From contig CP154954.1 in the NCBI GenBank assembly GCA_039621445.1, positions 24,874,954-24,938,953 of the forward strand: a stretch of 64,000 bases of DNA. The letters run 5' to 3'. How positions within the stretch are numbered: the first letter of the stretch is position 1; each line of letters begins with the position of its first letter. Positions 380-59,340 of the stretch are shown in pieces. Made by a program: the position numbers and the translations under genes. The DNA comes from Euglena gracilis. Taxonomy: Eukaryota. A model generated the notes under the pieces. The model saw nothing but the letters and a program-made list of their open reading frames with translations, was not told the DNA's origin and searched no databases.

Positions 380-8048
<7,669 letters not shown>

Positions 8049-9934
8049 CTGAGGACATAACAATGCAACAAATGAAGGAAACAGGAAAGTTGTTCGCTAA
8101 ACGGCTCTGGGGTGGAACAGCGTTGTACTGACAATATAAAAAAAATTACAATAAAAATATTAATATAATAATAGCATATATTAATAATCATCAATATCAT
8201 AATAAAATTATAGCCCTAATGGACTGTGGAAGAACCGACCAGTCTAGACAAAAGATCACTTGCCCAATCTAAAAATAAAAAACTGAACTGGAAGATAAAG
8301 GTAACAGTTACAACCAGGTCAAACAGGGTCACGAGTTAGTATCCCAACGGGGGAAAGCCCTTGCAGCCGCAACCAGGCTTAACTCAACCATTTAGGACAT
8401 CCGTTCAAAAGGAGAGGAGACTGATGCACACATGGCACCAGCACACGCCGTATAACAACGCATTTCTTCATTCTCGTGTATATGCCGGTATAACAGCAGC
8501 CCCCACAAGAAATCAGGCTCAACAACCCACAGGACAACCAGCACTGAGCCTGGTGCACTGCTTACTGGGCCTTCTGAGTTGTATGCTCCCCCCCTCCTGT
8601 TCTCAGATTCACCTCCGGTAGCGAAGAAGAAAAGGGTTAGAGCGAACAGTGGATTGGGAAAGTGTGTGCAGGTCTTCATACCCCTTGCCCTTTGATTTGC
8701 CACCACCCTGACCCTTACCCGCTGTAGCCCATTGATCACCACCCTTGCCTTTGCTAAATCCCTTACAGTGACAGCCACCCTTGCCCATGCCAAACCCAGT
8801 TTGCTGGTCCGGCTGTTTCGGGCTCGATTGGTTCGGGGCAACTGCTTTTTGTGGCCGGTATGTTCACCACACATGTGATGGCAGCAGAAATCGAGTCCTT
8901 GGGGACTCAATTTCTGCTGCCACTGTCAGTGCCAGGCAATCCTTCTGTTCATGACCCTTTTCCTTGCACCAATTGCAGCGGCGCTCCTTGTCCAGGATGT
9001 CCTCTTTTGCCCTCGCCGCACCGCAAGCGCAGCGAAAACTTCGTGGAAAGAGGTTCTCAGGTCTGGGGTTGGTGTGGGGCTTTCCTCAGGTTCTCCTCCA
9101 AGCCTCTGGGTTGGATTTTCGACCTTGCACACAGATCCAGTGCAAACAAAAATTACAGGACACAAAAACTAAAAAAAATTATTGTAAAATGTTTGATTTT
9201 GAAGGTAAAAATTGGGAAACTTCAAATTTTCAGGAAAAATGATGGTAATCCTTTTCAGTTGTGACGAAGATTTTTTGGTACGGTTAACTGAAAATTCAAA
9301 AAAAACAAAATGGACTTCTGGTGGTCTTTGTCGTGATTTCTATTTCGAAATAAACACCCAAAATTGACACTATTACATGACCCAGTCTTTTTGTGTGTGA
9401 CATTTGACCACCCCTGAGAGGGAGCCACAGGAGCAGGAGAATACATTGTACAAAAAAATACGGGAAAAACGTAGGAAATCGGGGCAGTTTCGAGTAATTT
9501 TTGTCCAGATTGTATGAACACTTTATCCCACACAGAGACCTCTTCTCCTCTCCTGCCTCGGCAGCCGCCAGCAGTATGGCGTAGCGCTTGGTGGTTGGGG
9601 CATGGACACAGCAACCACCGTACTAAGGGCGGGGTTTGTTTAGATGATGTGTGGAAGACAGAAAGGAGGCAATTGCTGAGTGAGCTGTTGGCCGGCTGAG
9701 CCGACCCCTCATCACTCACAGACCCCCGCTCAGCTGTGAAGCGGGGGTCTGACTAGCCACCCGATTGCCGCTCCAACCGCCGTGGCCATGAAAGGCACAA
9801 GCCACTTCGTAGAAACTGGGGGTGTGGTCTGGATGGCATCGTCAGCCGTCACCTGGGGTGATGTTTGATTCATGAAAGCCAGGAGGTTGGGTCGACCTCA
9901 AATGCAAGCGTAACATGCAAACAGAAGCTATATC

Positions 9935-10060
9935 AGTTAGCAATGTCACAGAAATGTAACCTTGACCAATACTTACCCCTTTTCTGCACTTTCCCAGAGT
10001 TAGCAATGTCACAGAAATGCAACCTTGACCAATACTTGCCCCTTTTCTGCACTTTCCCAG
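9935..10060. repeat. 63-bp tandem duplication
   Basis: AGTTAGCAATGTCACAGAAATG...CTGCACTTTCCCAG occurs twice with few mismatches. Confidence 0.95.
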
Positions 10061-11957
10061 CCCCATCCATCTCTTAAAAATTTCCAGGGGGGGCTGCTGG
10101 CCGTCTAAGGCCATTTCCCAAAAAAAATTCGACAATTCGCGCCGAAACCCAAAAAAAAACCCAAACCCCCCTGGGGGGGGTCCGGGGGGTCCCACCCCCT
10201 CCTCCCCCCAGGGGGTCTTCTGACTTAAAATGAAGCCTGGCCTCATGCAGGATCCCCCTTTTTTGTGGGTCCTGTTGAAATTTTTTGAAAAGGTTTCAAA
10301 AAATTTTAAAATTGTATTCCGGGGGAGGGGTTAGGAGGCGGATGGGGAAACAAAAATACTGGTAGATAGGGCTGCCAAGGGCTTTGTTTTGGTCGCCGGA
10401 CATTTCCTTTGATTTTGTTTCATTTCCGAGATATTTTAGAAACATCGATTTTTTGACCCCGAGAACAATATGGCCCCAGAAATCGGCCAAAATTGGCCAA
10501 AAATGGCCATAACTCGGGCTGCACGAAGTTGGGAAGGATGGTTGGAAAGGGCATTCCAAGAGGTTCTTTCTTGTCTCCAGATATTTCCTTTGGTTTTGCT
10601 TTATTGTGGAGATATTTTGAAAAAAATATTTTTGACCAAAAAAAACCGGTCCAGAAAACCCCCCAAAAATGACTGTTTTGGGTCACAAAACCGGGCCGGA
10701 ACATGAGCCAGGCGTGTCGGCGGCCAAACAGCAAATGGGGGGGGGGGGGCGATAGAGGGTACATTTCAAATAACTCCAGGGGGGCATTTCGTCTGGCACT
10801 TTCGGAAATAATATACACATTTTTGAGATACTTTTGAAAAATCGATTGGTTTACCTACAATCTCACCCCAGTGAAATGGCAGGGTCGAAACTGGGGGGGA
10901 TTAATTCTACCCAGTTTGGCCCCTTGTCGGCTGAATAAATCGGGCCTGGCGGGAGTTGGGGGTCAGAGGTGATTTAGAAAGCCGGGATCCAGTCACTGAC
11001 CCCCCACTATTACCAAAGCGCCGGACGAAATTTTTTGTGCTCAAAATTGGCCAAAAATTGGCCAAAATGCCATTTTTGGTGTGGTTTGGGCAAACATTTG
11101 TCAAAATTGCCCCACATTTTCAATGCAAAGTGCCAGAATCGACCCCCCCCCTGGGGGGGAGGGATAGATGGGAAGCCCTTCGCTTTTGAGGTTTGAAAAG
11201 GTGTCCTCTGGTCGGGGGGGGGTGGCTGTTGGAAATGGAGGTCATTAGACATAGGGGGGGGGTACCACATCCACCACCACCACTACCATGACCACCGCCA
11301 TGACCACCGCCACCTAATAAATGACATCAGCAGCAGCCGCAGCAGCAGCAGCAACAACAACAATGATGAATTTGTCCCAGATATGTGTCCAGCAAATGGA
11401 TACCAAAGATTTGAGTCTGCTGTAAAAAGGCTGCTAGCTGACGTGCAAAATCCCCCAAGAAAAATAGAACATGGCAACTTTGAAGCAAACAAGGAAGCAT
11501 TTTCAGTGCCAATTTCAGGCAGAAAATATGTTGTAAGCTGTTTTTGGATCGTCGTTCGTTGTTTGCTTCGTGAATCCTTAATAACCAGCCCTGTTCAGAC
11601 TCGGTGGGCATACTTGGTGTTTTTTGGTGGTTTGGTGGTGGCCTGCAAAAAGGAATGATATTTGAATTACCGCTGCGTGTTTCTGGAAGGGAGATGCTTC
11701 CACTGTGTGCACTGCTGAATGGTCTGTGTGCAGCACTGAAGAGCATCGAGCGGCACCAGAACGCCGCCCACATGCCAAATATTAGGTGCACACCGCCTAA
11801 TTGTAACAATTTGGGGTGCCACACAGTCAACGCGTGCAGTGTGCAGGCATCTGCAGTTGAATCCTCATCCCAAAATCCCAAACACACAAATGGTGGGCAA
11901 AAAAACACAAAAAGATTGGCACAGAAAATGTCAAAGCAACAGGGAGGAAACAGGGAC

Positions 11958-12281
11958 CTGCGGAGGATCGAGTCGCGATGGAGGCAAATGGCTGAGGGAC
12001 AGGTGCACGGTCCACTGCCACCACGGGCTGCGCGTGGACGGTCCACCGCACGCCACTGCCGACGTTCGCCACGGCAGGCTGCGAGGAAAGTTCACATTGG
12101 CTTCTGGGTAGGCACGTTGGCCATGACTGTTGAGGCTCGGGCCACTTGGGCAACGAGCTCAGGGACGACCACCCCCAGTGGGACACACCTCTGGGTGCCA
12201 GGGCAGAAGTGCTGTGGTCAAGAGGGCAACAACCACGGCGCAGCCCAGCGGCCCGGACCACCGCGCACCGAAGAGCACCAT
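11958..12281 (-). CDS. Probable first two exons of the glyoxalase gene, encoding a signal peptide plus a transit-like peptide
   Basis: ATG at 12281. Exon 12281-12189 = MVLFGARWSGPLGCAVVVALLTTALLPWHPE, then a GT-AG intron (12188-12079), then exon 12078-11958 = PAVANVGSGVRWTVHAQPVVAVDRAPVPQPFASIATRSSA and a GT donor. A further candidate exon near 8970-9038 reads FAALAVRRGQKRTSWTRSAAAI. Linkage to GLO1 is inferred. Confidence 0.6.
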
Positions 12282-12884
12282 CGTTAGGCCTCAGCGGGAC
12301 ATGCAAGTCCTTCAAGGAGCAAGGGAGCGGCCGATGAGGTGGGGAGGAAAATGGGCCACATCGGCGCTGGCACCGTGCAACATCGCGGTGGGCCAGGCAA
12401 AGCCCATCAAAGTCACGAGAGCGACAAAAGTGTTCCCTTTGCGGATCACATAACACCACTCCTCCAAATGGTGCCGCTCTCGTTCCCCCCCCCCGCCCGG
12501 GTCAACGTCACCACAGTGACGCAAAACCCAACAACAAGCACAAGGTTGGGTCCAAAATCTTCTCTTTGGAGGCGGGAACCCCGGATTAGGGCAGGGAGGA
12601 GGATGAGAACTCCGAGACGTCTTGGAGGAGGAATGCAATGCAGTCCGCGCTTTGCATGCCATCTACTCACACAAGAAAACGATAAACAGCCTATGGGCAG
12701 CATACAGGCTGAATCAGACTTGGAAACCCCACATGAGAAAAAAACCCTCCTTGGCTGTGGGACCCCATCAGATCCCACCGTGCAGGTCCCCTCCGCACAC
12801 CCTCCCCCCAATTATGAATCTCTTGGCTTGTCATCGTCATTTCTGGTACCAAAATCAATCAAATTTCCATCTGCGCTCGGGGGT

Positions 12885-13938
12885 CAAGGGGGGGATATGC
12901 AACAAGCCCCTCAAAATATGCAATGCAAAAAAATGCAAAAAAGTGCAAAGAAACATGCAAAAAAATATATATATATATAAAAGTTGTATATAAATTCCTT
13001 GAGGAGCTCCCCGGGGATATACACTTTTCCACTGGAGAGGTGTAAATTTTCTCCTTCCTGAGGAAAGGTTTTTCACTTTGCAACATTCTTTTGCCATGCA
13101 ACATGGTGCATGTTTTGGGCAATCACAGCTAACGCCCCTGTTGTTGGCATGGATTGACATTGTAAATGAAACTCCAGAGAACAGGTTTTTTTTGGAACTT
13201 TTTGACAGAGTTTTTGAAAAGTTTTCAAAAATTATCTGAAAATTTTGACAACATTCGCAAAATAATTTGACAGACTTTTTTGAAAAAATTGACACAAAAA
13301 TCGAGCCAGTGATTTGTCCAATGGGGGCAAATTCTTCAATTTTGCCAAAAAAGTTTGAAACGTCTTTTTTCCCCAAAGACCCTGTCAAAAAGTTTCCAAA
13401 AAAACCTGTCAAAAAGTTCAGGAGATTCTGAACGCTTCATAAACTGTGTCATTTCTTTGCAAGAATTAGTCAATCTGTTCCAAGAATAGATTGCGCCAGC
13501 TGTGGATATACGAACTTTTATTTAACAGGACACAAAAAAAAACATGAACAAAACAGTGTCTGCGCACTTTTTCAAAAAAAAATTCAAAAAAATTCACCAA
13601 GGAACACCACACCAAAAAAAGTGTGGTGCAAACTTGCAAAGTGACATGATTTGCCCAGTTGCATGCATTTACATTTCATAGTGCAACAACCGTTAATGTG
13701 AAATGGTCCAAAAATGTCTAAATACAACTTCCATCTGGTGAGAGAGCAGTTTGCCTGTGCAATCGTGCAAAAAAGGTCGAAAAGGTCAAATAAGCAAAAA
13801 AAAAAAATGCAAAAATGCGACTTTTTCAAAAAAAAATTCAGTGGACAGAATGAAAACGATGCAATAAACTGCACGTTTTCAAGATTTTTGATTATCCAAA
13901 AAAATGCAAATTATGCAACTTGCATATTTCCCCCCTTG
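12885..13938. mobile_element. About 1-kb AT-rich element with terminal inverted repeats
   Basis: CAAGGGGGGGATATGCAA ... TTGCATATTTCCCCCCTTG. No clear TSD and no coding capacity recognised. Confidence 0.55.
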
Positions 13939-14479
13939 CAGGTCCCTGTGCCGGGGAACCACCGTTTTACCCTTGTAACAGACAGTAAGGAGACGACAGC
14001 AGGCCGACCTTGGGCTTGAGCACACTCGAATACCTATCCCGGGGAACAGAATCAATCGGTTTCCGGTTTGAGGGCCAAAAGGCCGTTTCTTATATGACCA
14101 GGTGACCATACCCAGGGGTACCCACATTTGGGGTCCCAGAGCACCCATCCAGATTCCTTCAAACTTTGCAGGTTTTACGACATGCGCATGTTTTTCACAC
14201 CTGTAGACACTAAAGACAGCACACTTGAATACCTATTCCAGGGAACATAATGGGAACCCCCAATCGGTCACTGCTACACACAAATGGAACGAATGTCATC
14301 AGGTAGTTTCCAGGTTAACATCCTTGGAAATTTCCATGGCCAGAGTGTTGAAGCGGATACCTCAAACAGCGTGAGGTCCATGCTCCCAACCGAAATCTGA
14401 TCAGAAGGGGATGACAACCCCTTCTGACCTGCTGTTCTGGGACAGGCTTTCTGCAGTTCTCTGTTCGGCGAGGCTACTG

Positions 14480-17400
14480 TACCACAACGATGTGGCGCTG
14501 AGGGTTGGGCATCAGCCGGCGGGGCCGACAGCAGGCTGAATTTGACCAACTCCAGGGGGGGGGTCTCCGAATGCCATGGAGTGCCCTCCCCTCCCCCCTG
14601 GGGGTCAGTGCCTGCCTTGCCGTGGGCCAGAAACGGGCCAAAAGAGGCCTTTCAGGACTTGTGCACTGGCGTACCTTGGCCGAGTGCCCATTCTTGGCCA
14701 TGTGCACTCCCGTGCTGAGGGGGCAGTCGGATCTGGGTGCCTTGGAGAGCCTCCCCAGCGGATATCCGCCACCAGGCTGAGGTCGCCCATGCCGTAAAAT
14801 TCAGCCGGGCCAGGAGAGGGGGGCCTCCAGTGGCAGCTTCGACTCCCCTCAAGGAGGGCGGGGTCAGGGTTTTTTTTAAGACCGGGGGGGGGACCCCCAC
14901 CCCCCCGCCCCCTGGGGGCTCCCCAGGGGGGAGCCGGCAGAACCCACAAAATTTGGCAAAAAAATCGCAAAAAAGTGTTAAAAAAGCACCTTTTCAAAAA
15001 TTCGGCACCGAAAAGTATATCCCACCCCCTCCGGGGGGACCCCCGGGGGGGGGGGGGCTCGGCCGGACCCACCCACCATACCCCCCCCCCGGGGGTCCAC
15101 GACTAAAAAAAACTCCTGGGCGGGGAGCGGCGGGCAGAGGGCGGATGGTGACACACAGCGGTGTTTTGGGCGGGGCTGAGATGCAAGGCGTCGGCCCGGT
15201 GGTGCGCGGGTTGGGCCCAGTGGCAATCCAGGGCTTCCGGAAGGGGGGGGTGGGGGAGGGGGAGTGGCTTCTGGTGCGTAGGGCGTTCGGGGTGATTGAT
15301 GCGTAGGGCGCTCAGGGTGATTGATAAAATCGGCTGGCGTTCGGGATGGTGCTTCGGATGCACTCCAGCCGGGTGTTCTGATGCACATTCCGGAACTGAC
15401 CGCCAAGGTTGGGGGCAAAGACCGCATGGGGCTCTCATTCAAGCTTGGGGGGCGAATGGCACAAATGATCACTCACAATGTGACAACGCGAAGAAGAAGC
15501 AGAGGCCAGGTTGTGCGGTGCAGGAAACGGGGGAGCAGGGGAGCGGAGGACGGCGAGGGGGAGCCTTCTGGAGCCGGCGAGGGGCGACCAGGGCTGCACG
15601 GGAAGGCCTGGGGGTCGACCCCCCCACCCGGGATTTGTGAGGGGGTTTTTTTACAAATTTTTCCTCAAAAGTTTTTGGGGTCGAAAATTGGTGCTCCCGG
15701 AAATACGGGAGGTGGTGGGGGGGGTCGATCCCCCCAACCCACCACCTTGGCCGATTCCCGTACTGCCCTGGGAGCAACTGGAAATCATCCTTCCGGCGGA
15801 GGAGGGCACGGCAGGTTGGGCGGGGAGGACGAACGGCCCAGCAGGGTCCAGGGCGGTCCTTGACATGAAAGGTGGAAAAAATGCCGTCCCCCCCATGCAA
15901 TAAAAACAGCATTTAAAAAAAGAGGTCGAAAATAATTCGCATGGTTTGACAAAGAGGTCGATATTGGGGGGGGGGGGGCTTCTGGCATCCTTGGACCATC
16001 GCCAATCCACCCAAAACGTCAAAAGAAATGCCGATTTCGACCTGTTTCCGGCCCCGGATGGCCCTTGGGCCAAGGGGGGTTTTAAGGGGCGCTCCATAAT
16101 TCCAAAAAAAAACTTTTCCTGGAAAGACCGATCTGCCGGGGTCTGTCTGTGTAGCCATGGTGCTGGCCTCAGGGCGTCGGGAGAGGAGGACGGGGGGAGA
16201 AGGTAGAGGGGGGGAGGGCACCACCCCCTGCGTGGGCTGCGGGGGCTGTGGCACGGAGGCGGGGGGGGGGGAGGGAGGGTGGGCTGGTGGTGGTGGCCGG
16301 GGGTGTTTGAGACCACGCGCCTCCCCCGCAGGACGTTGTTTAAGGGGGACTCTGGGCCTGGCCTGGCCCAGGGCCATACACGGGGGGGGGGGGGGGCCTG
16401 GATGCACCCACCCACCAATCCAGCACCGAGGGTCAACCTTTAGAGGGAGGAGGATTGTGGGATCTTTTGCAGACCGAAAGATTAGGGGGGGGTCGCTGAG
16501 CTCTTATCCCTTTTTAGGTAAGAGCGAGGCTTACCCCTGGGGAAAAGGGGGGGGTCGGACCCCCGCCTTCCCCCCCCCCGGGTCGGGGCCACCTCAGGAA
16601 CCAGCGAATTATCGCCATGATCCCAGCTCCGTTCCCGGAATTTTTTTTCAGTCGCGAGCGACTGGATTTCTAGTTTCTGAATCACCTCCGTTTGACCCCA
16701 ACTCCCCACCAGGTCCAGGTTATTCACGCGCGAAGGGGTCCAAACTGGGTAGGATTGTCCCGCCCCCCCCCCCCTCTTCCGACTCTGCCATTTGCCGGGG
16801 TCCAAAAATCGGTCAAAAAAATGATTTTTCGAAAATATCTCGAGAAACGAAGCAATGTTTTTTTGGCCTCCCGGACCCGGAAAACCTGCTTTTTGAGCTG
16901 AAAATGAGCGTTTTTCGACCTGCAGCCCGTTTTTGGCCCGAAACCCATTGGCTTTGGGTCAAAAACGGGTCGAAAAAGGCGAAAAAAATCGAGAGAAAAA
17001 AATGCCCGAAACGATGTTTTTTGGGTCTCCCAGACCCGGCTATTTTTGAGCCGAAAATGAGCGTTTTTTGACCCGCCAGCACCCCGTTATGGGCGCAAAA
17101 CCGAAGGAGTTTGGGTCAAAACGGGTCAAAAACGGGTCAAAAAAGTCGAAAAAAAATCGAAAAAAAATTCGCGCGAAAGGATGTTTGCCTCCCGGACCCG
17201 GAAAACCTGTTTTTGAGCCAAAAATGAGCGTTTTTCGACCCGCCAGCGCCCCGTTTTTGGGCCTGAAACCCAAGGACTTTGGGCCAAAGACGGGTCAAAA
17301 AAAGTCGAAAAATCGGGAAAAAAAATTACCCGAGATGATGCTCTTCGGCCTCCCAGACCCGGAAAAAAGTGGTTTTGAGCCGAAAATGAGCACAAAAACG

Positions 17401-20400
17401 TACCAAAAATTGCTTCCCACAACTCCCGAGTCCGTTTTTGGTTTTACAGTGAAAAACCGTGCAAGGTACAGAGCTCAGCACTATTCAAAACCTGGTTATC
17501 CTTGGAAAAAAAAATACTGGCAGCGAGATGAATAAAAAAAATCTTGCTGCCATGTCGGCGGCAAGGTAGTGTGAGGAACCCAAAAATTTCTTAAGGTGAA
17601 TTTGACAACCTTAAAAAAAGAATGCATTAATATTTTAATACAGCTTGAAAATCATCTTTAAATTTAATGCATCTTCAAAAATTCATTAATTATTTTGCTC
17701 AACTGTCTTAATGTGCTTTGAGATGCTCAGGGGATCTATTTGAAAGAGTGATCTGGGAAGAATCTTTCTGGACTGAACACATTTGTGCTCTGGCTGAAGA
17801 CACGTTCTGCTCCCCTGCAACCAGCAAGTGGAGGGAGGAATCGCAAGACAAGGTGGATGAGAGGGGGAGTGATAGGGTCGGGACGGAGCTGCCGCTCCAA
17901 AGGCTCCAAGCGACCAATGTGGCTCGGCTTGGGGTGGGGGGAGAATGTTTCTGGAAAAAACACTTTGGGAGAAGGGGCCCAGGCAATGTGGAACAAACCA
18001 GCCAAGAAAAAAAAGAATAGAACAACTCGTCACCTCCCATCTTCCATCATTTTCTGCCCTTGCCTTGAAATTGTGCAACAATATTTCTCTGAATTTTCTG
18101 AATCTGAAACCTCAAAAGGTAACATTGTACTTTTTTGGCTTTTTTAGAAGCAAATGTTGTTTTCGCACCAAAAATGTTTTTCTGTCTGGCACAGGACATC
18201 TGCCTGGGCGATCTGGACCCCCCATGTGGCAGGGGTAAAACAGAAGTCTGGATTAAAGTGATGAAAACTCCATATGCAAATCCGCATCAACGATCACAAC
18301 GAGGAAAACACTGTGCAACGTGGCGAGGGCATGTTTGGGGTGAAAAATCTGCCGACCAGGCAACCGGGAAAAAGGTCACCCGAAGCGCGGGCTGAAGGAG
18401 GGGGAGATGGAAAGCGGCAGTCACGGCGTTGCAGGCCAGGTCCGAGGCCTCTGTGGAGCGGCACCGACGATGCGGCACCCGGGGAGGGGGGCAGGCAGCC
18501 GTGGTGGAAGGGAAGGGCCAGGAATACCAACACTGACCCCAGGCGAGCGCTTGGGCAGAGTGGGAAAAAAGATTATGATAGTTGCCGATCCAAGACAAGA
18601 TTCAAACGGCTCCAAAAAATTCAACGTGTGCATATTTTGGGCTTGCGCGGGGGGGGTCAATTGGAGAAGGGGTCTGAAAAAAGGTCGATGGGCACCCGGG
18701 ACTCCACCCCCCAAAAGGGTCAAATTTTTCCTTCCGGGGCTTTGTGCTGAAAGTTTGAGCTATTTTACATATTTTTTGCTCAAATAGTGCCAAAAATGAC
18801 ATTTAAGCAAATTCGTGGCCGATTTGGGGGAAAATGTTTCGGTCAAACGCTTCATGACCGGCCAAAAAAAAAATGGCCAAAGATCCGAAAAGGTGTCCTC
18901 GCTGGGGGGTGGTCATGGGACATGAGGGGGGGGGGTCGTTGAACATAAGTGGGGGGGGGGGGTTCCTGGCAGGTTAGGCCACATCATCTCAGTTATGTTG
19001 AGACTCTGTCGCCCAGCCGTCAGTAAAAACAATGCAAGTCTGTCTGGGGTGAGAGAATTAATGCCCAATGCTTTGAAACTGTTTTCTCTCCTGTGCGGTT
19101 CTGTCTTGATTTAGAGGGTTCGGTCGCGGGCACAAATTGACCAATTATTCCAAGAGGAAAATACTGAAGGCCAGAGCAGAGTGGATGCACGGCGTCTGGG
19201 AGGGGTAAGAAAGCGTGTCAGGGCATTGCATTACAATGGGATACCCTGCACTTTCTTTGGCCCCCTGAATTTTGGGGCCCAGGTGGGGATGCAACAATTT
19301 GCTGCAGATTTCACTGCAGCAAATTTGATCATGCCTGATTTTTCCTCCCTGGTGCAAACACCAAAAAATATAAATTGTGTTGGGATTGGTTCAGCAGGTA
19401 TGGGGACTCTGGATAAGGAGCGGCCCGCCCTGCACCGCGCACACGCAAACCAGACAGCAGACATACATCAGCACTGGAGTCCCTTTTCTGCTTCCCCATC
19501 TTGCCTTTCTGCCTCTCCCCCTCCCTCGGACCTTGGACATTTAGCCGCTGGCCCCTTGAGCATAGCCACAAAAACACACAAAAAGAAAAGGAGTAAGTAA
19601 CCGAGAGGAGGCGCAGGCTCAAAAGCTGAACAAGGCAGTGACACTGCAGCGCACCACAACATCACAGCACTGAAAAAGCTCAGAACACTTTGTCACTCCC
19701 AAGAAACTGCACATAAACAGGAAACACTGAAAAAATATATATTACGACTAAGAACCTCAGAAAATGCAGAAAACTTTTGGGGAAGAAATCCAAACTTGCG
19801 GGGGTTGTGGGGCGGAGCACTTTATTTTGTTTCCTTTTGTGAACAAAATAAAAGATGAGCCCATTAAACAAACAATCCATTTCAAGCACAAGAAAGGGAC
19901 AGCCCACTCGCAGAAAGTCATCACAGCGAGAGAGCAGGGCGGACAGGAGAATGATTGCATGAGCAAACCGAGGGGTTGCGAGCAGGCTTTTGTTTAAGGA
20001 CCCGGGGGGGGGGGTACCGGCGGCTAGCCAAACGGCTAGACACTGGAAAAAGTGGACTAGCTAGCCCCCCCTCCCCCGGGGGGGGGGGGGGGGTCCGGGG
20101 GTCCCCCGAACTGGAAAAAATTTTCTCGGCGCTGCGCGCCAGAGGAAAAATGAGGTTTTTAATAGGTTTTTGGCTGATTTTGTTCCAAAAATTCCCAAAA
20201 ATGGCCAAAACCGGGCATTTTGGCCATTTTGGGGGGTCTCAAAAAAATTTCGGCGCTTTGCGCCGATCACTGGAAAAAAATTTCCACTAGCTAGCCCTGC
20301 TAGCAGACCCCCCCCCCCGGGGGGGGTCTGCTAGAAATCCCACTAGCCAAATTTGGACTAGCTGCAGTCCAGCCCCCCCCCGGGGGGGGGGGGGGTACTG

Positions 20401-23400
20401 CAATCCCTTAAGCAAAAGCCTGGTTGCGAGGTGGGTGGGTTGGCGAGCAGCGGATGGGACAGCTACAAAGATGGGAACGCCTCTGTCCACCAGCCAAGTC
20501 ACAGGGCAAAGGGCAGGCTGGAAGGACACAGCCAGGCAGGAGGGGGCAGCTGGGGAAACAATTGGTTGGAAGGAGCTTTTTTTTGCCCACCTGCCTGCCT
20601 GTACGAACAACATCGTTGCCCCAGTGGTGGGCAGGGAAGGCCTTTTTGGCGGTTGGAAAATACAACTCATTGATGGGGGGGGGGTCCGAGGCTGGAAACA
20701 GGCTGTTGCTGTTGGCTGGCTGGACCCCTATTGGGGGGTGGGTCAATTTTTCTTGACCTCCGCCCTGGCACCAAGGAAATCCTCGCAGACGCTGCACAGA
20801 GGCGCCAATCACATGTTGCAGAAAGCAGCGATGCAGCAAGCGACTGAGTTGGGTCTCACGGCTCAGACTGGCACTAGGATGCTGAGTGACGACCAGAAAC
20901 AGAAAAGAATTCGCAATTGAACAATCATTTTGCCATCACTTTTCTGCCCGTGCAGTGTGATTCCATGCTGGGACCTGACACACAATATCACAACAATCAG
21001 GCTTTGGCTTACCCCCCAATGTCCAACGACCGGTAGCCTTCTGTCCTCCAACCAGGGGGTGGTTGCTAGACATAGGGTTGTGACCAAAGATGGTGTTCTC
21101 CAACTGGGCGGTGGTCGTTGGACAAGGGGTCCAAAACAAAAAGGTCGACAGATACCTGAGACCCCCCCAAAATGTCAAAATTTTCCTTACAGCACTTCAA
21201 GCCGAAATTTTGAGGAAATCTGACAATTTTTTGCCCAAAAAGTACCAAAAAAAGGCACTTTGGCCAAATTTTGGCAAATTTTGGGCTCAAAAATTTTCGG
21301 CCCGGTGCGCCAGGACCAAGAATCTGGCCAAACCTCCGAAAAGGTGAAACCTCCAACTAGGGGGGTGCCGTTGGACATAGGGGGTAACCAACATATCCAG
21401 AATATCCGGGGGGGAGGGGCTCTGTTATAGGGTGCCTGCCCAAAATAAGACTGCCAGAAAAGGTCGGCTCTGCATCTGGACCAGGCTGTTTTTTTTACCA
21501 ACCCCGGGGGGGGGGGTCCGGAGTGCCTGCCCAGGTAAGCACTACCCCCCCCCGGGAGGTCAGATTTCGGCCTGTGCCCAGGCACATTCCTTTGAAAATA
21601 GGCCATTTTTGGCTCCCCGGCGTCTTCGGCGCCGGGGTTGTGATAGGGCACTTTTGGCCGTGTGCCCTACCCCTTAGTTGCACTAAGGCTTCTTGTCTGT
21701 TTATGGCCGGCGCTAGCTTCGCTTCTGGCCCAGTTTGCTGCGTGGTGAGTGGCCAGGTACCCCTAACACCAGTCCTCTTTTGTTGCTCCCCCTGGCCGGG
21801 TGAGTAACTCTGGTGTAATTCCAGCGCTGTAGGGACATACACTCACCTTGTGTGGTTGGTGTGGTTCCCGTGGGTGGGTCTACACCCTTGCGCCCCAGTG
21901 CTGCTCTTGCCTCCTGCCCTCTTCCCACTTTTCTGTGTGGGGGATGCATGGCGCAGGCACAACGCCATGACTTGAAAAATTACAATGTGGCCTCACGGTC
22001 CCGCGGCTTAGGTAAACCCGGGTCACCAAGTCTCGGCCTTAGGGCGGGTGGCGGGTGGGTAGTGTGCTGCTGGGTACCAGTAGTTCCTTACATACTGGTA
22101 CCTGCGCTCCATGCCCTGTCCGGGGTTGGTTTGGGCGGTCCTCTGCCTCCGGGACCGGACTTGGAGTGCCTTGGAGTGCCTGCCCATGCCCAGGCAGGCA
22201 CCCCCCCCCCCGGTGTGGGGTCGGCACCCGACTAAAATACGGCCTGATCTGGACGTGGTAGGACTACAAAATTGAACCTTGAAAGTCGCCTGTTTAGGGC
22301 CTGCACGGGCTTCACCCCCTCCCCCTCCCCTGCCCCACGGCTTCTCAACCCGGGGGTCATGTGCATTGCCTTAAAACGACTGGTGGCACGTGGGGGGGGG
22401 GGGGCTTCAATCAGCCAGCGAAGCTACAAACTTGAGGATGCATAAGAGGGAGGAGCACACACAGCCTTCTGTCCAGCGGTGTGGGGTGGGGAGGGGCGAG
22501 CTACGAGATGAAGGGGAGGAGCCGGAGGGCGATGGACACGAGAGCAAGGGAGGTCCGAAGCGTGCAATTGCTGGCCGGCATGAGGAGGAGGGTCGCTTGC
22601 AAAAACAAAGTTCCCCCGCAAGCTCCACAAGACAAGGAGTAGCGACCACTTTAAGGAAAAGCGAGCACCCCTCATGCAACTCCCACTCAGATTTGGAGGG
22701 GTTGCTGAAAATGGGTGACAAACTCTATGAGAGAGAAAATCAAGGCACCTGTCAACCATTTTGCAGCCAAATTCATCATGAAACCTTCTGAGAAGCCAGC
22801 ATGTTGAATATTTTGCCTGGAAACCCTCTCCACAGAAAAGAACGATCCAAGCTACCAAGGCCATCTGTTTGCTTGCTTTCGGCCACTTTTTAGGTGGGGG
22901 GGTCCCCCCCACCTGCCCTTTTATCGAAGCCTGGGGTCTGACTGACTTCTCTCCGGGGCATCGCTCAAACTAAAGGGGACGGGGGTTCTTGTGAGGTGAT
23001 CCACCAGGGTGTCCCAATAGTAGAATGGGGCATTCCTCATGATTTGCCATTTTTTGGGATTCAGATTGGGCAGCAATAATAAAGATAGAAATAGTAATTC
23101 AGTCGTCAGAGTTGGGTTCGAGATTTTAATTCTGCCCAAAGGGTGGGTGGATGGTAATGGTAAGCAAAAGTTTTTTTCCCCTTTGGGAGGTGAAAAAATG
23201 GACCAAAATGGATTAGAAAAAAGGGGCTGGGGACACACAATCACTTGGTCACTGGCCGGCCCCCTCCCCCCGGAGGACAGAGTGACTGATCAGTCTCTGG
23301 CCTGGACCCCCTCCCCGGGGGGGGGGGTCAGCTCCAAAGTGACCTGGAATTGTTTTTGGCTTTTTTACATTTATGGTCGGATTTCTCTTGGATTCCAGAG

Positions 23401-30023: not shown

Positions 30024-32109
30024 TCAAGGACCGCTGCTGCTGCTGCTGCTGACGGGGGAGGGTCTTTGGTGGTTGGTGGTCGTCCTTGCTTGTGGTCCAG
30101 CTTTGGAGAATTCTTCTCCGGGTTTACTCGGGCGAAGTACGGAAGCCCCATCGACCGCTGCCGCCGTGGATTGCGCCGCTGCGAGCAGCCTCCTGGGAGC
30201 CTGGCCACGGGTCCTCCCGGGCCAGGTCGTGGCGCGGTGCCAGCCGCGCGGAGCGACGACCTCCACGGCAGCGATGGTGGCAGGCGCCTCCCGGGACGCG
30301 GGGGGTCCGATGGGGACGGAGGGTCAGAGGGGCAGGGGGAGGAGGGGGGGGCCTGGGGGTGGTCGCCGCCCAGCTTGTTGAAGGAGGAGATGGAGACGTC
30401 GATGGCGATGAGGGTGTCGTTGCAAAACCTGCAGCGGGGGCAGAGCAGGTCGCAGCCCTCCTTTGCCAAAGGTTGGAGCCCCCACAGAAACTTGTCTGGA
30501 GGCGACACAGACCGACCGATTGCGGGGATGGGAGTGGTGTGTTTAATACTTTCTGGCGTTTCACGCAGGAACACAGGAGATGGTGTCTGATTTTGGAATC
30601 GGTCTCGATAGGGGAAACGGCTGCAATCCTGGTCTGAGAATTAACAAGAGGCTTGCCTGGGTTGGCCAAGCCGGAGCTTTCCTGGGCTCCACCGTCTTGA
30701 TCGGCTTCAGGCTGGAGTGCCTTCCAAGCCCTTTGGCACCTTGTCCACCTCACAAGAGGGGGGGAATCAGATTTTGCCGAATTCCAGACGAAGGTCGCAG
30801 ATTTTTCAAAAAATCTTGAAACATTTGCACTCGAAAACCTGGGGGGACCAGGGGGGTTTTGGGTCTTAGTGGTGCAAAATAGCCAGGCGTGGGGGTGCAC
30901 CTGCCAATGGTCCCCGAATACTGGATGGTGTGGCCCACGACCAGGCGGTCGATGGGTTGGCCGGCCCTCTGGGAATATTCCCGAATGACTTCCATCAACT
31001 GGCGGCACTCCCCTCCCTCCGCTTGGCAGATGAGGAGCCAGGCGATGATGTCTCTGTCCTCACCCCAGGCTTCAAACAGGGGTTTTTATAAGACCGGGGG
31101 GGTCCCCTCACCCACCCACCCCCTGGGGGGGGGGGGCACCCCCAGGGGGGGGGGTCCCAGGGGACCCAACCCACTTTTCCCCGAAAATGGCCAAAAAAAT
31201 CGTGAAAAATGCTAAAAATAGAACTGTTTTCAAAAATTCTCGGAAGCACCAAAAAGTATACCCACCCCCTCTGGGGGGGGGGGGGACCCACCCCACCCTA
31301 ACCCCCCCCCCCTGGGGGGTCCAAGGCTAAAAAGAAAAACCCTGGTTTCAGAATTGGCCGTGAAAAGGTGCTGTTTATTGTGCTGGCGTGAGACGAAAAC
31401 GTCCGTGAGACAGTGAGACGGGGCACGCTGTTGCTATTCTGGCGGAGACATCGTTGGGACCACGAGGGCCCGTCATCGGCCAGCACGAGGTGGTGCCAGC
31501 GTTCCAGGCTGACCTGCCGGCGAACCTGTGGGGATGGGCGGGAAGGCGAGAAACGCGAAGGTGAACAGTGGAACGTTGTCCCAACCGTCCCCATTCTGCC
31601 CGTTGTGCAACCCAGACAGAAGCCTGGGTCATGCTGCTTGGGCAGCTGGACGTGGAACGCATGCAAACAGTGCTTGGGTAAAGCAGCCAAGGACTGAGAC
31701 TGAGGGGAGGAGAGCTCAGAGTTTTCCAGCTCAGAGACAGGAAAACTTGGTTTGGATGGAAAAAAACTTCCCCTGGCTGCCTGGATGGAACGGAGTCCAA
31801 CTGGGGGTTAAACCGGGTCCAAAAACTGCCAGTTATGAAAAAAAATTCAACTTTTTGCCCCTAAATTTGTCCTGGCCGCCCAAATCCACCCATTTTGGCC
31901 CATTTTAGAACCTCCGAAAGCCAAGAATCTGTCACCTTCCAACCGCCCTTCGGGCTGCAAACAAAAAAAAAACTTATCGATGGGGGCGGAGGCGGTCCGA
32001 TGCCGGAAAAAGGCTGCTGGGTGTCTGGACCCCCCCCAGGGGGATGGGGTGCCCTCGGGCTTTTCCTATTCTTACCAACCACAGGGGTCTGACGCAATCA
32101 GCCGCAAAG

Positions 32110-32161
<52 letters not shown>

Positions 32162-32995
32162 CACGGAAGCACACGCATGCACACACAATCCATACACACC
32201 TCGTCATTCAGCTCTGAGATCGAAAGTTTGGCCAGCGTGGGTGTACCGCCAGGGATGAATATGAATGGGAGGGGACAGCACGAATTCAGGGGGTGCCCCA
32301 AAAACCTGGATGCAACCCTGGGCGACCCCTGCATGCACAAAGAGGGAGCGCCCCAGGAGGGTGATGGAGTCCAGCTGCCGCACCCAGCGGTATGGCCCCC
32401 TCTCCCCGAAGGCCTCCAGCCTGCCCTGCACGCCGCCGAAGGAGTCGACCTCCCCTGCCAGGCAGAGGCACGGCCGCCCGGCCTCCCCGCCGCCTCTGGA
32501 ATGGGTGGCACAGCACCTTCATGACACACCATGGAATGCAATTATTATTATTTCAAATTTATTTATTTTTATTATTTATTGTCTCTCAATGATTATTGGT
32601 ATTATTAATGATTAATGATTAATGATTATTATTATTATTTATTGATTTTTAATTGTTCTATTTTTAATTAATTTCAATCATTAAATCATAATATAATGAT
32701 TATTTTATTACATTCCTTGGCAATGGCCTTGGTCTCTGGATGGCAGGCACCACACACCATTGGAACCATTTGCACACTCGCAGCACTGAATCTCTTTCCA
32801 AATTTCTTCTCTCTGCACCTCATAAAGCATCATTTCAACCAAAACAGCGAGCCACTCCCCACACCTTCGAGAAAAAGATGCAACACATGTGAATGGACCT
32901 CCATATGGTCCACTGGCAAAAGCAAATATTCATGGTAATGCAATTGTCGCTTAGTACTTGATGCGGCCGCCAATGGCAACAAGAGCTGCAGTGAG

Positions 32996-33030
<35 letters not shown>

Positions 33031-34930
33031 CCAACGACCTCGCAAACCTTTGTGGGTGTACTTGGTGCGGCCCTTGAATGCCATGATCTCATGGTTGCCC
33101 AACAGCTGAATAAGGGCTCCTCCGGCTGCCGTCGCTTGCCGCGCCATCTTCTTCAAAAGGTCCAGTAACTGATGACGGCAGACAATCCGTCACTGACACG
33201 TTTACAGTTGTGACGAAGCAAGAGCCATGGTACAAAATACATCTGCATGAACGGATCAATCGAGGGAACGTGGGGAAACGATCACAGAAAACTTTGCTGT
33301 GGCAGAGCGTTTCCCTGCACTTCTGCTGGGAACAGGGCGTTGCTCGAAGACCTTACCCAAGGTGGTCCAGCTGAGGGGCTGGAAAAATTGGGCTGGCTGT
33401 AAAAAAAAAAAGGCTGCTGGCTGACCCCCGACTGATCCCCAGCTGGAACTGGGCCAGACTGGGGTCAGGGGATTTCTTAAGGACCCCCCAGGGGGGGGGG
33501 GGTTCCAGCCTCCGGCTGGCAAAAGGCTGCTGGCTGGAAATGAGCTGCTGGCTGGACCCCCCCCCGGGGGATAGGGGGGGAGGGGGGGTCTGGGGCTGGA
33601 GGGGGCTGGGCTGGGCTGGGTCGATGAAAAACAAAAAATTTTAAAACATTTTTGTCTTCTTGACATTTTGATGGACCTAGATCAAGGCTGGGGGCTGTGA
33701 TGGAGGAAGCTGTGATGAGGGGAAAAAAAAATGCAGGGATAGGTGTGCTGGGCAGCCCAGTTGGCTCAGCCAGCCCAGCCAGCCTGCGGCTGGCTGGCCC
33801 GGCCTCTGGCCGGGCTGGACCCAACTTTATTTCACTTGACCCCCCGGGGGGGCTCCCAGCCCAAATTTGGGCTGCTGGCTGGATGTGAGCTGCTGGCTGG
33901 CTGGACACCCCCCCCCTGGGGGATGGGGTCCCCTCTGGCTTAAGGAATCCCCTGCTGGGGGTCGAACCGGGTCCAAAAACCAAAACTGCAAAAATGCCCA
34001 AAAAACTGCCAATTATACAACAAAAAAATACATTTTTTTGCCCAAAATCTGGTCAGCCTTCTTCGAAAGCAAAAAAAATACAACTTCGGTCAACATTGTC
34101 CTTTGGTGCCGAAGAAACGTTTGCGTGCACAGCGACATGGCAGGTGGGGGGGAGCGACAGGTGGTCCAGAGCAGGGGTTTTTTTAAGACCGGGGGGGAGG
34201 GGGGTCCCCCCACCCACCCACCCCCTGGGGGGGGGGGGGCCGGGGGGGGAGGGGGGTCCGGGGGACCCACAAAAAATGGCCGAAAAATCGCGAAAAGTGC
34301 TAAAAAAAAGAATTTTTTCGGCGCCTGCGGCGCCGAAAAGTATATCCCACCCCCCTTCGGGGGGACCCCCCCCGGGGGGGGCTCGGCCGGACCCCCCCCC
34401 CCTACCCCCCCCCCCGGGGGTCCAAACTTAAAAAAATCCCTGGTCCAGAGCAACCGGCAAGGGAACACACCTGGCGCGAGTCCGGGCCGCGGTCCACCAC
34501 GTCCCCGGTCTGCACCAGCACCGCCGGGCCCCCCCGCCAGTTCCCCTTCGCGTCGGTCAAATTGCACAGGCGGAGGCAGCGCAGAGCGTTGCGGAGGTCG
34601 CCGTGGAGGTCGCCGAGGGCGAAGAGCCGCCCGCCGGGGACGAGCGGCGCCGACGAGGAGGGCAGGCGGCGGGGGCAGGCCCCGGACGGACGTTGTTTGC
34701 AGGAACCGGCAAAAAGTCCAGCCCAGGGCTGTGGGGGGGGGGGGGGGCATGGGGCCTTGGCAGACAATCGGTGTGCAAGTGGGTAACGTTCGTTAACTTA
34801 AGAGGGTTGTTGTAACCACCCTTGGCAGCGTAGGGAGGCCGATACTTCGCTGGGCTGTACCCCTTTTGATGCTGCAAAAAAAAAAATCAATCAAGACAGG
34901 AGAGGCCTGGGAAGAGGATCAGGACAAGGG
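30024..34930 (-). CDS. Shewanella-like (SLP/Shelph) PPP-family metallophosphoesterase, multi-exon; first exon not located, 3' end may extend to 29170
   Basis: Exons: 34930-34913; 34670-34471 (RLFALGDLHGD...LVQTGDVVDRGPDS); 33168-33048 (QLLGNHEIM); 32454-32324 (SLFVHAGV); ~31525-31457 (ADDGPSWS); ~31040-30901 (RLVVGHTIQ); 30428-30359 (LIAIDVSIS); 30275 onward (IAAVEV). The PPP motifs GDxHG, GDxVDRG, GNHE and HAG, then GHT and IDV, occur in order. Confidence 0.9.
30276..30358 (-). other. Short nonconventional intron in the SLP gene
   Basis: 5' CCC-CAGGC ... GCCTG-CCACC 3'. Excision gives KLGGDH|IAAVEVV. Confidence 0.8.
31077..31344. mobile_element. hAT-like MITE, family B, apparently inside an SLP intron
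   Basis: CAGGGGTTTTTATAAG...AAAAGAAAAACCCTG with flanks GCTTCAAA/GTTTCAGA (6/8). Confidence 0.85.
33466..33954. mobile_element. hAT-like MITE (GGCTG-rich interior)
   Basis: CAGGGGATTTCTTAAG...CTTAAGGAATCCCCTG with flanks CTGGGGT/CTGGGGGT. A related copy lies near 58067-58360. Confidence 0.85.
34172..34442. mobile_element. hAT-like MITE, family B, perfect 8-bp TSD
   Basis: GTCCAGAG-CAGGGGTTTTTTTAAG...CTTAAAAAAATCCCTG-GTCCAGAG. Confidence 0.95.
34671..34912 (-). other. Nonconventional intron in the SLP gene, following an 18-nt micro-exon
   Basis: 5' TCC-CAGGCCTC ... GGGGCCTG-CCCCC 3'. The join gives LVLILCRLPSSSAPLV. Confidence 0.7.

Positions 34931-37352: not shown

Positions 37353-59340
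<21,988 letters not shown>

Follow-up and report, generated by a model that had tools for sequence, protein, structure and literature searches.

Does the MITE at positions 15849-16135 of this stretch of Euglena gracilis DNA represent an intron that was gained recently through the insertion of a mobile element? The stretch, referred to here as the window, comprises 64,000 nucleotides in total. The original prediction held that the element interrupts an exon read from the minus strand, and that its removal along with three bases of one flanking duplication and five bases of the other would yield a continuous reading frame. The origin and the removal machinery of Euglena nonconventional introns are still open questions, and a 2025 paper on these introns describes their origin as unclear (PMC12501133). 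One hypothesis is that euglenid nonconventional introns derive from MITEs (Milanowski et al. 2014, PMC3935182; reviewed in PMC11282704).

Table 1. Coordinates of the element, its surroundings, its sibling copy and the control introns in the window. A slash marks the boundary between an intron and the following exon.
Feature	Position	Strand	Basis or detail
RNA-confirmed nonconventional intron, 78 nt, positive control, ACT-CAG ... CTG-TGTCC/A	9604..9681	-	
RNA-confirmed nonconventional intron, 41 nt, positive control, AGT-CAG ... CTG-TGAGT/G	9714..9754	-	
Adjacent MITE, 182 nt, from a different CAGGGC-type family	15589..15770	.	TIR 12/14
Would-be exon of 70 nt if both MITEs are cut by the 3+5 rule	15774..15843	-	inference
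Left copy of the 8-bp target-site duplication (TSD), GCAGGGTC	15841..15848	.	sequence
Predicted nonconventional intron, 295 nt, CGG-CAG ... CTG-GACCC/T	15844..16138	-	boundaries computed, with the code of PMC12501133
Family-C MITE copy, non-coding, 287 nt	15849..16135	.	end-to-end alignment with 54647-54947
Left terminal inverted repeat (TIR), CAGGGCGGTCCTT	15849..15861	+	0 mismatches, as at 54647
Conserved interior core, common to 54784-54814	15985..16015	+	motif search of the window
Right TIR, decayed, AAAGACCGATCTG	16123..16135	+	differs from the left TIR complement at 3 of 13 positions
Right copy of the 8-bp TSD, CCGGGGTC	16136..16143	.	matches the left copy at 6/8
Upstream flank	16139..16166	-	ATG (16157-16155) within CACCATGG
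Younger sibling copy, 301 nt	54647..54947	.	perfect TSD CCCAGGGG at 54639-54646 and 54948-54955; TIR 13/14

The element and its relatives

The presence of a MITE at 15849-16135 is confirmed, as terminal inverted repeats, an 8-bp TSD and many genomic copies are all found. The sequence CAGGGCGGTCCTT begins at both 15849 and 54647 with all 13 bases in place, and a search for it that allows up to two mismatches yields 11 matches compared to an expected 2.08, a number reached in none of 100 shuffles. The 31-nt core occurs at exactly two places in the 64-kb window when up to three mismatches are permitted, with none expected. Across their full lengths, the two copies are identical at 201 of 266 aligned positions (75.6%). 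The original prediction that the element shares both its TIR and its interior with the copy at 54647 is therefore upheld.

Two copies lie in the window, and part of the element is highly repeated in X16, a DNA-like run, whose summed depth in the bin 15801-16200 is 25,563 compared to approximately 22-40 for contigs of unique sequence. The core also attracts RNA reads that stem from other copies, with loose ends at 15980 and 15983. MITEs of the hAT superfamily create an 8-bp TSD, have short TIRs that begin with CAG, lack coding capacity, and reach high copy numbers. The element has each of these features, and its TSD length and TIR ends, which are the sole basis for this assignment, suggest that it is hAT-like.

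The two TSD copies agree at six of eight positions, an agreement that, by our binomial estimate for fixed positions, would arise by chance with a probability of approximately 0.4-1%. When read on the minus strand, GCAGGGTC and CCGGGGTC become GACCCCGG and GACCCTGC, and the pentamer GACCC is duplicated intact at both junctions because both mismatches fall outside of it, just as had been predicted. The same comparisons do not sustain the proposal that the element was recently gained. Two of the eight TSD positions and three of the 13 right TIR positions are mismatched, and the first 20 nt of the two ends pair at 11 positions, compared to 16 of 20 in the sibling copy. Moreover, DNA of a second strain, represented by an X16 contig (16105-16492, depth 21.1), has the right end of the element joined to its flank. 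Thus, the element is most likely old and partly decayed.

Other elements in the window share this architecture. The neighbouring MITE is flanked by GGGGCGAC and GGAGCAAC, which match at six of eight positions, and it has relatives at approximately 4279-4469 and near 24000. A scan of the window for CAG...CTG ends that pair at 12 or more of 14 positions returned 24 candidates, compared to 3, 0, 5, 3 and 2 in five shuffles. Six of these 24 carry 8-bp flanking repeats that match at six or more positions, whereas none of the 24 do so when the 8-mers are displaced by 8 nt. A young MITE copy at 19983-20422 adjoins an RNA-supported exon fragment and offers a better test case than the copy at 15849; its excision is predicted to place the exon start at 19977, where the first base is A.

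Searches beyond the family returned little. A metagenome scan with the upstream flank of the element gave no matches, and one with a 19-nt family core gave four contigs, all of which are chance matches of 19-28 nt that lack extended similarity. Comparison with Rfam gave six matches at E ≤ 1, every one of them far under its gathering score, and no match was found in a plasmid collection. A loose-end consensus at 16102, from X1, is absent from the rest of the window.

The element and the nonconventional splicing code

The Euglena nonconventional-intron code is given as 5'-N3-CDG ... CH'G-N5-6/purine (Nomura et al. 2025, PMC12501133). In the tests described in that paper, a 6-base spacer was less efficient, T as the first exon base was tolerated in one of two intron contexts, and C at the exon start led to an unstable transcript. 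Furthermore, five of five synthetic introns that were designed from the code alone were spliced (PMC12501133).

The window contains two RNA-confirmed nonconventional introns that serve as positive controls. Reads of four runs were aligned to the window, with approximately 5% of the RNA run X17 and 56% of X21 covered; 15 joints are listed at a threshold of three reads, and there are 323 further joints. The joint 9713/9755 is supported by 12 reads from X17, nine reads from X21 and one X1 contig, and the joint 9602/9681 by 11 reads, eight reads and one X1 contig, respectively, with none from X16 in either case. The boundaries of the 78-nt intron were slid by one position within two ambiguous letters. 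Both of the odd joints among those listed for the window obey the nonconventional code. Reads also support GT..AG introns, and six X17 reads terminate at 12310 with the complement of the tail of the Euglena spliced leader, for which the 3' end was taken from PMC4778363. A dinoflagellate origin of the DNA is rejected in view of the GT..AG introns, the spliced-leader tail and the nonconventional joints.

On the minus strand, the element has a 3-base spacer followed by CAG at +4 to +6 (CGG-CAG), and a complementary CTG followed by a spacer of five or six bases (CTG-GACCC or CTG-GACCCT). The 3+5 boundaries chosen in the original prediction are therefore those of the experimentally defined code, and in its N3-CAG ... 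CTG-N5 arrangement and pairable ends the element is like the introns described by Nomura et al. (PMC12501133). It differs from them in two respects. The first exon base is T with the 5-base spacer, and a purine (G) is reached only with the 6-base spacer, in which case the intron would end at 15843. In addition, two mismatches lie immediately inward of the CAG:CTG pairing, followed by eight pairs according to our reading of the sequence. The predicted minimum-energy fold pairs the ends of the element in a shifted register, with a z score of −1.48 for the whole fold. The sibling copy at 54647 fits the full code, including the purine, on both strands. The neighbouring MITE reads TCC-CAG ... CTG-GTCGC/C on the minus strand.

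Any element with inverted repeats that start with CAG and end with CTG, and with an 8-bp TSD, carries most of the nonconventional code by construction. Specifically, the 5' signal consists of CAG and the three TSD bases before it, and the 3' signal of CTG and the five bases that follow it in the second TSD copy. Because three and five sum to eight, a cut at the code positions takes out the element and exactly one TSD copy. A copy that carries the code in this manner is potentially excisable from a read-through transcript, and the success of the synthetic introns implies that a code-bearing element in a transcript may well function as an intron (PMC12501133). We infer that the copy at 15849 would probably be excised if both of its ends sit in one RNA. 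Such excision would be a by-product of the nature of the element, and does not show that a gene has newly acquired an intron.

Transcripts, flanks and competing readings

Transcription of the minus strand around the element occurs at a low level. Across all bins between 14201 and 16200, the stranded run X21 has a depth of 1.2-3.4 on the strand of minus-strand RNA, compared to 0-0.08 on the other. Three to four reads per run show the strain variants at 15465, 15466 and 15515, and an X1 contig extends over 15244-15390 at a depth of 18.6. The predicted joint 16139/15843 is not among the 15 joints listed (with 323 further), and the nearest unique stretch holds approximately three to four reads. 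By our estimate, nearly all RNA depth in the bin 15801-16200 is attributable to cross-mapping reads from other copies, in that six X17 reads of approximately 95 nt make up the bin total of approximately 508 nt, and three X21 reads of approximately 126 nt represent most of approximately 492 nt. Therefore, the RNA on 15400-15590 apparently does not continue unspliced through the element, which is equally consistent with excision or with a transcript start downstream of the element.

The flanks show no sign of protein coding. In the proposed frame of 15774-15843, GC content by codon position is 0.61/0.70/0.74, compared to 0.63/0.46/0.91 in a true coding exon, and it is flat in 15244-15560 and 14239-14557, although this periodicity test operates here on very short stretches. 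A GC3 scan recovered the glyoxalase exons and did not recover the proposed frame of the flanks. A 40-aa frame from the flanks has no match among proteins of 71-2000 aa, and one frame of the exon 18542-18427 has no protein match either; both are weak negatives because a single frame was searched in each case and only against proteins of at least 71 residues. For a neighbouring exon used as a control, the best protein matches are euglenid, and one is apparently derived from a Euglena gracilis transcript. The claim that the flanks are exonic is thus not supported by coding periodicity or by protein matches to the proposed frame. A 25-nt tandem repeat is present at 15275-15325.

Cutting 16138-15844 (295 nt) gives ...STMATQTDPAGPFVLPAQPAVPSSAGR..., and so the single open frame that had been predicted to result from excision is reproduced. 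This outcome is uninformative, since even in the unspliced DNA a stop-free frame of 262 aa (ORF 15651..16439, minus strand) spans the entire element. Alternative joins at this locus are also open, and joining the upstream exons to the flank in several ways leaves all frames largely open. As the frame is open without splicing, the in-frame argument for excision carries no weight and is no better than chance.

These observations are best accommodated, in our judgement with moderate confidence, by an old and partly decayed member of a hAT-like MITE family of very high abundance, residing in a non-coding, MITE-dense, GC-rich stretch transcribed from the minus strand. The flanks would then belong to a UTR, a non-coding RNA or a larger intron. 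Ahead of the segment 16139-16166 on the minus strand lies a pyrimidine-rich run with AG at 16168-16167 and 16163-16162, a configuration that looks acceptor-like and, if used, would place candidate exon starts at 16166 and 16161. Together with the ATG in a strong initiation context, this tract and its AGs resemble a real exon start, a resemblance that runs against our preferred reading.

A tentative alternative, less probable than the old-copy reading, is that the element is a complete and functioning nonconventional intron, not a recent one, that a stable minus-strand RNA loses by cuts at 16138-15844 (or 15843); the exons of this RNA would include 16139-16166 and 15774-15843 as UTR, non-coding RNA or a short open frame. 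The code is matched apart from the purine, and T is tolerated in one of the two contexts tested by Nomura et al. (PMC12501133). The acceptor-like tract upstream of the element and the minus-strand RNA downstream of it are in keeping with this alternative, as is the unique RNA depth over the element, which we estimate to be very low compared to that over 15400-15590. Also, the upstream minus-strand exons (19918.., 18542-18427, and 17880-17804, the last followed by a GT donor at 17803) must join a partner exon farther downstream. Weighing against it are the pyrimidine at the exon start with the 5-nt spacer and the two mismatches right beside the CAG:CTG pair. Excision of the neighbouring MITE, at a distance of 70 nt, would give an exon that starts with C, the variant with an unstable transcript in the published test (PMC12501133). 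The lack of the joint among the 15 listed, with 323 further and a threshold of three reads, also counts against a functioning intron and is not decisive. Of the original proposal of a candidate whole intron, the MITE identity and the 3+5 fit stand, and the purine, a coding signature in the flanks and a protein match are missing.

It is rather unlikely that the element lies inside a larger minus-strand intron that runs from the donor at 17803 to an acceptor below 15844, in which case it would never be present in mature RNA and its fit to the code would have no consequence. The exon 17880-17804 does end at a GT donor, and RNA depth is near zero in 17401-17800. Moreover, 14860-17400 is full of repeats with very high genomic depth, as is usual for introns, and a second pyrimidine-rich tract with AGs occurs at 15795-15840 on the minus strand. 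However, no joint from 17803 to any acceptor is found among the joints listed, and it is on the upstream side of the element, not the downstream side, that the strongest acceptor-like tract is located.

The idea that a protein-coding exon (MATQTDP/AGPFV...) recently acquired the element as an intron is disfavoured, and we regard it as very improbable. Excision leaves an open frame, and an ATG in strong context lies 18 nt upstream of the element. Yet the frame is open without excision as well, and when both MITEs are cut by the 3+5 rule, translation by hand gives approximately 68 low-complexity residues and then a stop. Neither coding periodicity nor a protein match was found, decay is evident in the TSD and TIR, and the element occurs in another strain too. 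Finally, only the count of two copies in the window suits the notion that there is no mobile element and that the likeness to 54647 reflects chance or local duplication, which is scarcely credible given that the ends and core match far beyond chance, the TSDs of the two copies are independent, X16 depth is hundreds-fold over that of unique sequence, and RNA reads of other copies align to the core.

Comparison with known systems

The hAT-like MITE ends in the window reproduce the splicing code, and thus the MITE-origin idea becomes directly testable, through comparison of family copies with RNA-supported introns and through comparison of strains. The copy at 15849 is a weak exemplar of such an origin, being decayed, located in non-coding sequence, and excised by prediction only. 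It shares with the introns discussed under the MITE-origin hypothesis the inverted repeats, CAG at +4 to +6, CTG at −8 to −6, and TSD-like repeats at the junctions (PMC3935182; PMC11282704). The 2014 paper states that transposable elements were still to be identified in the genomes of euglenids (PMC3935182). In contrast to the state of knowledge given there, the window holds named multi-copy families with intact 8-bp TSDs, none of which has been caught acting as an intron. In the openly available literature that we searched, we found no paper that ties a named hAT or MITE family to Euglena nonconventional introns.

A doubtful extension is that family C and its CAGGGC-type relatives are living "introners" of nonconventional splicing, with the copy at 15849 being one such intron of a minus-strand transcript. 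Under this scheme, the CAG and CTG termini and the 8-bp insertion duplication (3 + 5) would supply the whole splicing code, so that whenever a copy inserts into a transcribed exon it would act from the outset as an intron that can be removed precisely, restoring the original sequence. If this is true, the MITE-origin hypothesis becomes countable genome-wide, and one may ask whether excision machinery and transposase recognise a common hairpin-plus-8-nt geometry.

A precedent is gapC intron 4 in one strain of Euglena agilis, which is described as a recently acquired nonconventional intron whose junctions carry eight-nucleotide direct repeats (Milanowski et al. 2016, PMC4770533). In both cases there is an element-like insert with an 8-nt direct repeat and the features of nonconventional introns. 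The gapC intron resides in a known, expressed coding gene and is absent from other strains, whereas the element at 15849 has no gene context, its repeat has decayed to 6/8, and a second strain has it as well (PMC4770533).

Introners, or introner-like elements, of dinoflagellates, Micromonas and Aureococcus are described as DNA transposons whose ends and TSD provide the splice signals, and they include classes with 8-nt TSDs that are functional in either orientation (Roy et al., 10.1101/2020.10.14.339549). In that account, introners are removed by the spliceosome at GY...AG sites, whereas the boundaries at 15849 have no GT or AG and would use the separate machinery of Euglena (10.1101/2020.10.14.339549).

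The family-C element and the age of its insertion

The window, which is eukaryotic DNA with a GC content of about 50%, contains abundant microsatellites, as well as short repeats that include runs of G/C. Within it, the family-C MITE copy studied here (the target; coordinates in the table) and a sibling copy have no mismatches in their first 13 bases, have in common a 31-nt interior core that occurs nowhere else in the window, and are identical at 201 of 266 aligned positions. Pairing between the two ends of the element covers 16 of 20 positions in the sibling copy, which carries a perfect 8-bp target-site duplication (TSD), CCCAGGGG, but only 11 of 20 in the target. The TSD of the target, GCAGGGTC / CCGGGGTC, matches at 6/8 positions, and the right terminal inverted repeat of this copy is decayed (3/13 mismatches). 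The target is a genuine, old MITE copy. All sequence statements made about it in the original prediction are correct, including the minus-strand GACCC repeat and the peptide obtained after removal of 16138-15844.

The dating of the insertion fared differently. Public runs containing the stretch 7001-17000 were found, and two raw RNA runs (X17 and the stranded X21), RNA-like contigs (X1) and DNA-like contigs from a second strain (X16) were placed on 7001-19000. The X16 run, which over 389 nt shows 7 letter differences and 5 gaps relative to the assembly, has a contig at unique depth (21.1) that spans positions 16105, in the target, to 16492, in its flank. Because this contig crosses the target end, the second strain has the insertion too. 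Recent gain, as originally proposed, is not supported: two of the eight TSD positions and three of 13 at the right end are mismatched, a quarter of the positions aligned with the sibling differ, and the second strain has the same insertion. Because some RNA reads are at least 95% identical to the right half of the target, it has close relatives, and the 24% difference from the sibling may therefore be due in part to subfamily divergence rather than age.

Features of the window (positions in the window)
Feature	Position	Strand	Details
Target, family-C MITE copy	15849-16135		287 nt; starts CAGGGCGGTCCTT
Sibling, family-C copy	54647-54947		301 nt; initial 13 bases identical to CAGGGCGGTCCTT; CAG...CTG candidate with TSD-like 8-mers (end scan)
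Second MITE	15589-15770		70-78 nt from target; decayed, TSD 6/8; CAG...CTG candidate with TSD-like 8-mers (end scan)
CAG...CTG candidate with TSD-like 8-mers	4279-4469		end scan
CAG...CTG candidate with TSD-like 8-mers	19983-20422		end scan
CAG...CTG candidate with TSD-like 8-mers	34172-34442		end scan
CAG...CTG candidate with TSD-like 8-mers	36741-37226		end scan
Nonconventional intron	9754-9714	minus	41 nt; AGT-CAG ... CTG-TGAGT|G
Nonconventional intron	9681-9604	minus	78 nt; ACT-CAG ... CTG-TGTCC|A, slid by 1 of 2 ambiguous letters
Glyoxalase I (lactoylglutathione lyase) exon segments	322-483, 733-900, 4930-5142, 5497-5640, 6516-6653, 7826-8074	minus	GC3 0.9-1.0

Fit to the nonconventional splicing code

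The Euglena nonconventional splicing code has been defined via knock-in genetics (Nomura et al. 2025, PMC12501133). It comprises three spacer bases followed by C-D-G at the 5ˊ end, a complementary C-H'-G followed by five spacer bases (six being possible but less efficient) at the 3ˊ end, a purine at the start of the exon, and pairing between the regions adjoining both trinucleotides; all five synthetic 50-nt introns designed from it were spliced. The "3+5 rule" of the original prediction, under which three and five flanking bases would be removed with the target, is this published code.

The target with its flanks has the minus-strand sequence CGG-CAG ... CTG-GACCC|T and the plus-strand sequence GTC-CAG ... 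CTG-CCGGG|G. The former is the relevant reading, since the stranded run lies almost wholly on the minus-strand-RNA side, and it satisfies the code apart from the purine. The exon would start with T after a 5-base spacer or with G after a 6-base spacer, and T is tolerated in one of the two published contexts (PMC12501133). Inside the CAG:CTG pair, two mismatches are followed by eight pairs; in the predicted fold the ends meet in a shifted register, and overall stability is not unusual (z = -1.48). This fit to the code is due to the element's own structure. Because 3 + 5 = 8, any CAG...CTG transposon with an 8-bp duplication carries the code, and cutting such an element at the 3+5 points returns the pre-insertion sequence. 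By construction, the target is a potential nonconventional intron whose excision is predicted.

Two RNA-confirmed nonconventional introns occur in the same window. A minus-strand gene spliced within 7001-19000 has four GT..AG introns and two odd short joints, of 41 and 78 nt, which are present in X17, X21 and X1, absent from X16, and fit the published code exactly. These two introns are without a trace of a TSD, since their flanking 8-mers match at just 4/8 and 3/8 positions, respectively. One exon of the gene is a glyoxalase I segment whose best protein matches are euglenid (Eutreptiella, 87%; EG_transcript_18923, 89%), and such segments recur, which suggests either several domains in one gene or a tandem duplication of genes. 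The RNA contig differs from the assembly at 11/164 letters in exon 7884-8047 compared to 0/96 in exon 9755-9850, and therefore a paralogue or divergent allele is expressed. Six X17 reads extend beyond 12310 with sequence complementary to the conserved E. gracilis spliced-leader 3ˊ end (PMC4778363); the spliced-leader addition site of the gene is at 12309-12311 on the minus strand, with AG at 12311-12310. The spliced leader and the euglenid matches identify the source of the window as a Euglena.

RNA and coding character around the target

Minus-strand RNA extends across 14201-15800 (X21 bin depth 1.2-3.4), with strain variants at 15465-15515 in three to four reads per run, and an X1 contig at 15244-15390 has a depth of 18.6 compared to about 3 for nearby retained-intron contigs. 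Over the target itself (bin 15801-16200), we estimate that almost all depth is attributable to reads whose alignment starts only at the family core and which diverge further on, and which thus come from other family copies, with loose ends at positions 15980 and 15983. The joint 16139|15843 is not among the 15 joints listed at a threshold of three reads (323 further joints and 1444 loose ends lie beyond the listing), and the reads covered amount to roughly 5% of run X17 and 56% of run X21. These data suggest that the RNA downstream of the target does not run on unspliced through it, which agrees with excision of the target as a nonconventional intron, with a transcript start below it, or with its location inside a larger intron.

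The open frame obtained by excision (MATQTDP|AGPFV...) proves nothing, because unspliced DNA is already stop-free through the target: a 262-aa frame crosses it, and other joins are open too. A true coding exon here has strong periodicity (GC 0.63/0.46/0.91 by codon position), and a scan on this criterion recovers all glyoxalase exons. No codon periodicity was found at 15244-15560 and 14239-14557, where GC by position is flat, and the 70-nt stretch 15774-15843 is not coding-like in the proposed frame (0.61/0.70/0.74). That frame matched no protein among those of 71-2000 residues in a library that includes euglenid proteins, a weak negative. For the second MITE, the minus-strand exon start would be C, which gave an unstable transcript in the published test (PMC12501133); excision of both elements by the 3+5 rule yields about 68 low-complexity residues and then a stop (hand translation). 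Protein-coding flanks, as originally envisaged, are not supported, and the target does not appear to lie in coding sequence.

Some sequence features would favour an exon. The stretch 16139-16166 includes an ATG in the context CACCATGG and is preceded, in the minus-strand direction, by an extended run of pyrimidines with two AG dinucleotides. Moreover, the upstream minus-strand exons (19918.., 18542-18427 and 17880-17804, the last of which has a GT donor at its end) must be joined to some exon further downstream. Exon 18542-18427, in one frame, likewise has no protein match, and so all of the downstream part may consist of untranslated or non-coding RNA. The boundaries of this exon are not GT..AG, and it has two upstream partners in X21 reads (18542 to 19918, and 18534 to sequence absent from the window). 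Separately, a 167-nt tandem repeat (2.2 copies) lies at 16956-17324. The summed depth of bin 17001-17400 is 661,730 for the DNA-like run and 14,241 for the RNA-like contigs, and both strands are covered by RNA reads, which points to a very high-copy, transcribed family.

CAG...CTG elements across the window and published systems

The whole window was scanned for CAG...CTG ends pairing at 12/14 positions or more and 40-1500 nt apart. This yielded 24 candidates versus 0-5 in each of five shuffles, and flanking 8-mers were alike at 6/8 positions or more in six of the 24 versus none of 24 for displaced 8-mers. The target falls under this strict threshold because it is decayed. Taken alone, this locus holds modest interest; the useful lead lies in the family-level pattern, namely ends with CAG/CTG, a duplication whose 8 bp equal 3 + 5, and the presence of several young copies within 64 kb.

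The element at 19983-20422 (440 nt) has a perfect 8-bp TSD, GTTGCGAG (plus strand), and ends that pair at 13/14 positions. In the minus-strand direction it immediately precedes exon fragment 19918-19944, which is backed by RNA loose ends linking 18542 to 19918. Its minus strand reads AAC-CAG ... CTG-CTCGC|A, the full code including the purine, with a predicted exon start at 19977. Judged by its sequence, this element would be a better candidate than the target for showing a MITE at work as an intron. Another element with a perfect TSD, at 34172-34442, lies beside a stop-free, high-GC3 segment. Such segments, with very high GC3, occur on the minus strand at 30891-31082, 32297-32470 and 34459-34656; their translations carry motifs that we take to resemble metallophosphoesterase, and they probably represent a further gene. 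Repeat families D8, D9 and D12, which are made of palindromic GCGCAAATGCGCGC-like units, form a cluster at 47384-49944.

In the accessible literature, which leaves subscription papers and supplements outside, we found no paper naming a multi-copy hAT-like Euglena family with copies shown as nonconventional introns. A MITE-like origin of euglenid nonconventional introns is an idea from Milanowski et al. 2014 (PMC3935182), repeated in a 2024 review (PMC11282704) that describes TSD-like repeats and terminal inverted repeats carrying CAG at +4..+6 and CTG at -8..-6, and restated in 2025 (PMC12501133). Two further sources describe a strain-specific, recently gained intron with eight-nucleotide direct repeats in E. 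agilis gapC (Milanowski et al. 2016, PMC4770533) and, in dinoflagellates, well-documented spliceosomal introns made by transposons with 8-nt duplications (preprint 10.1101/2020.10.14.339549).
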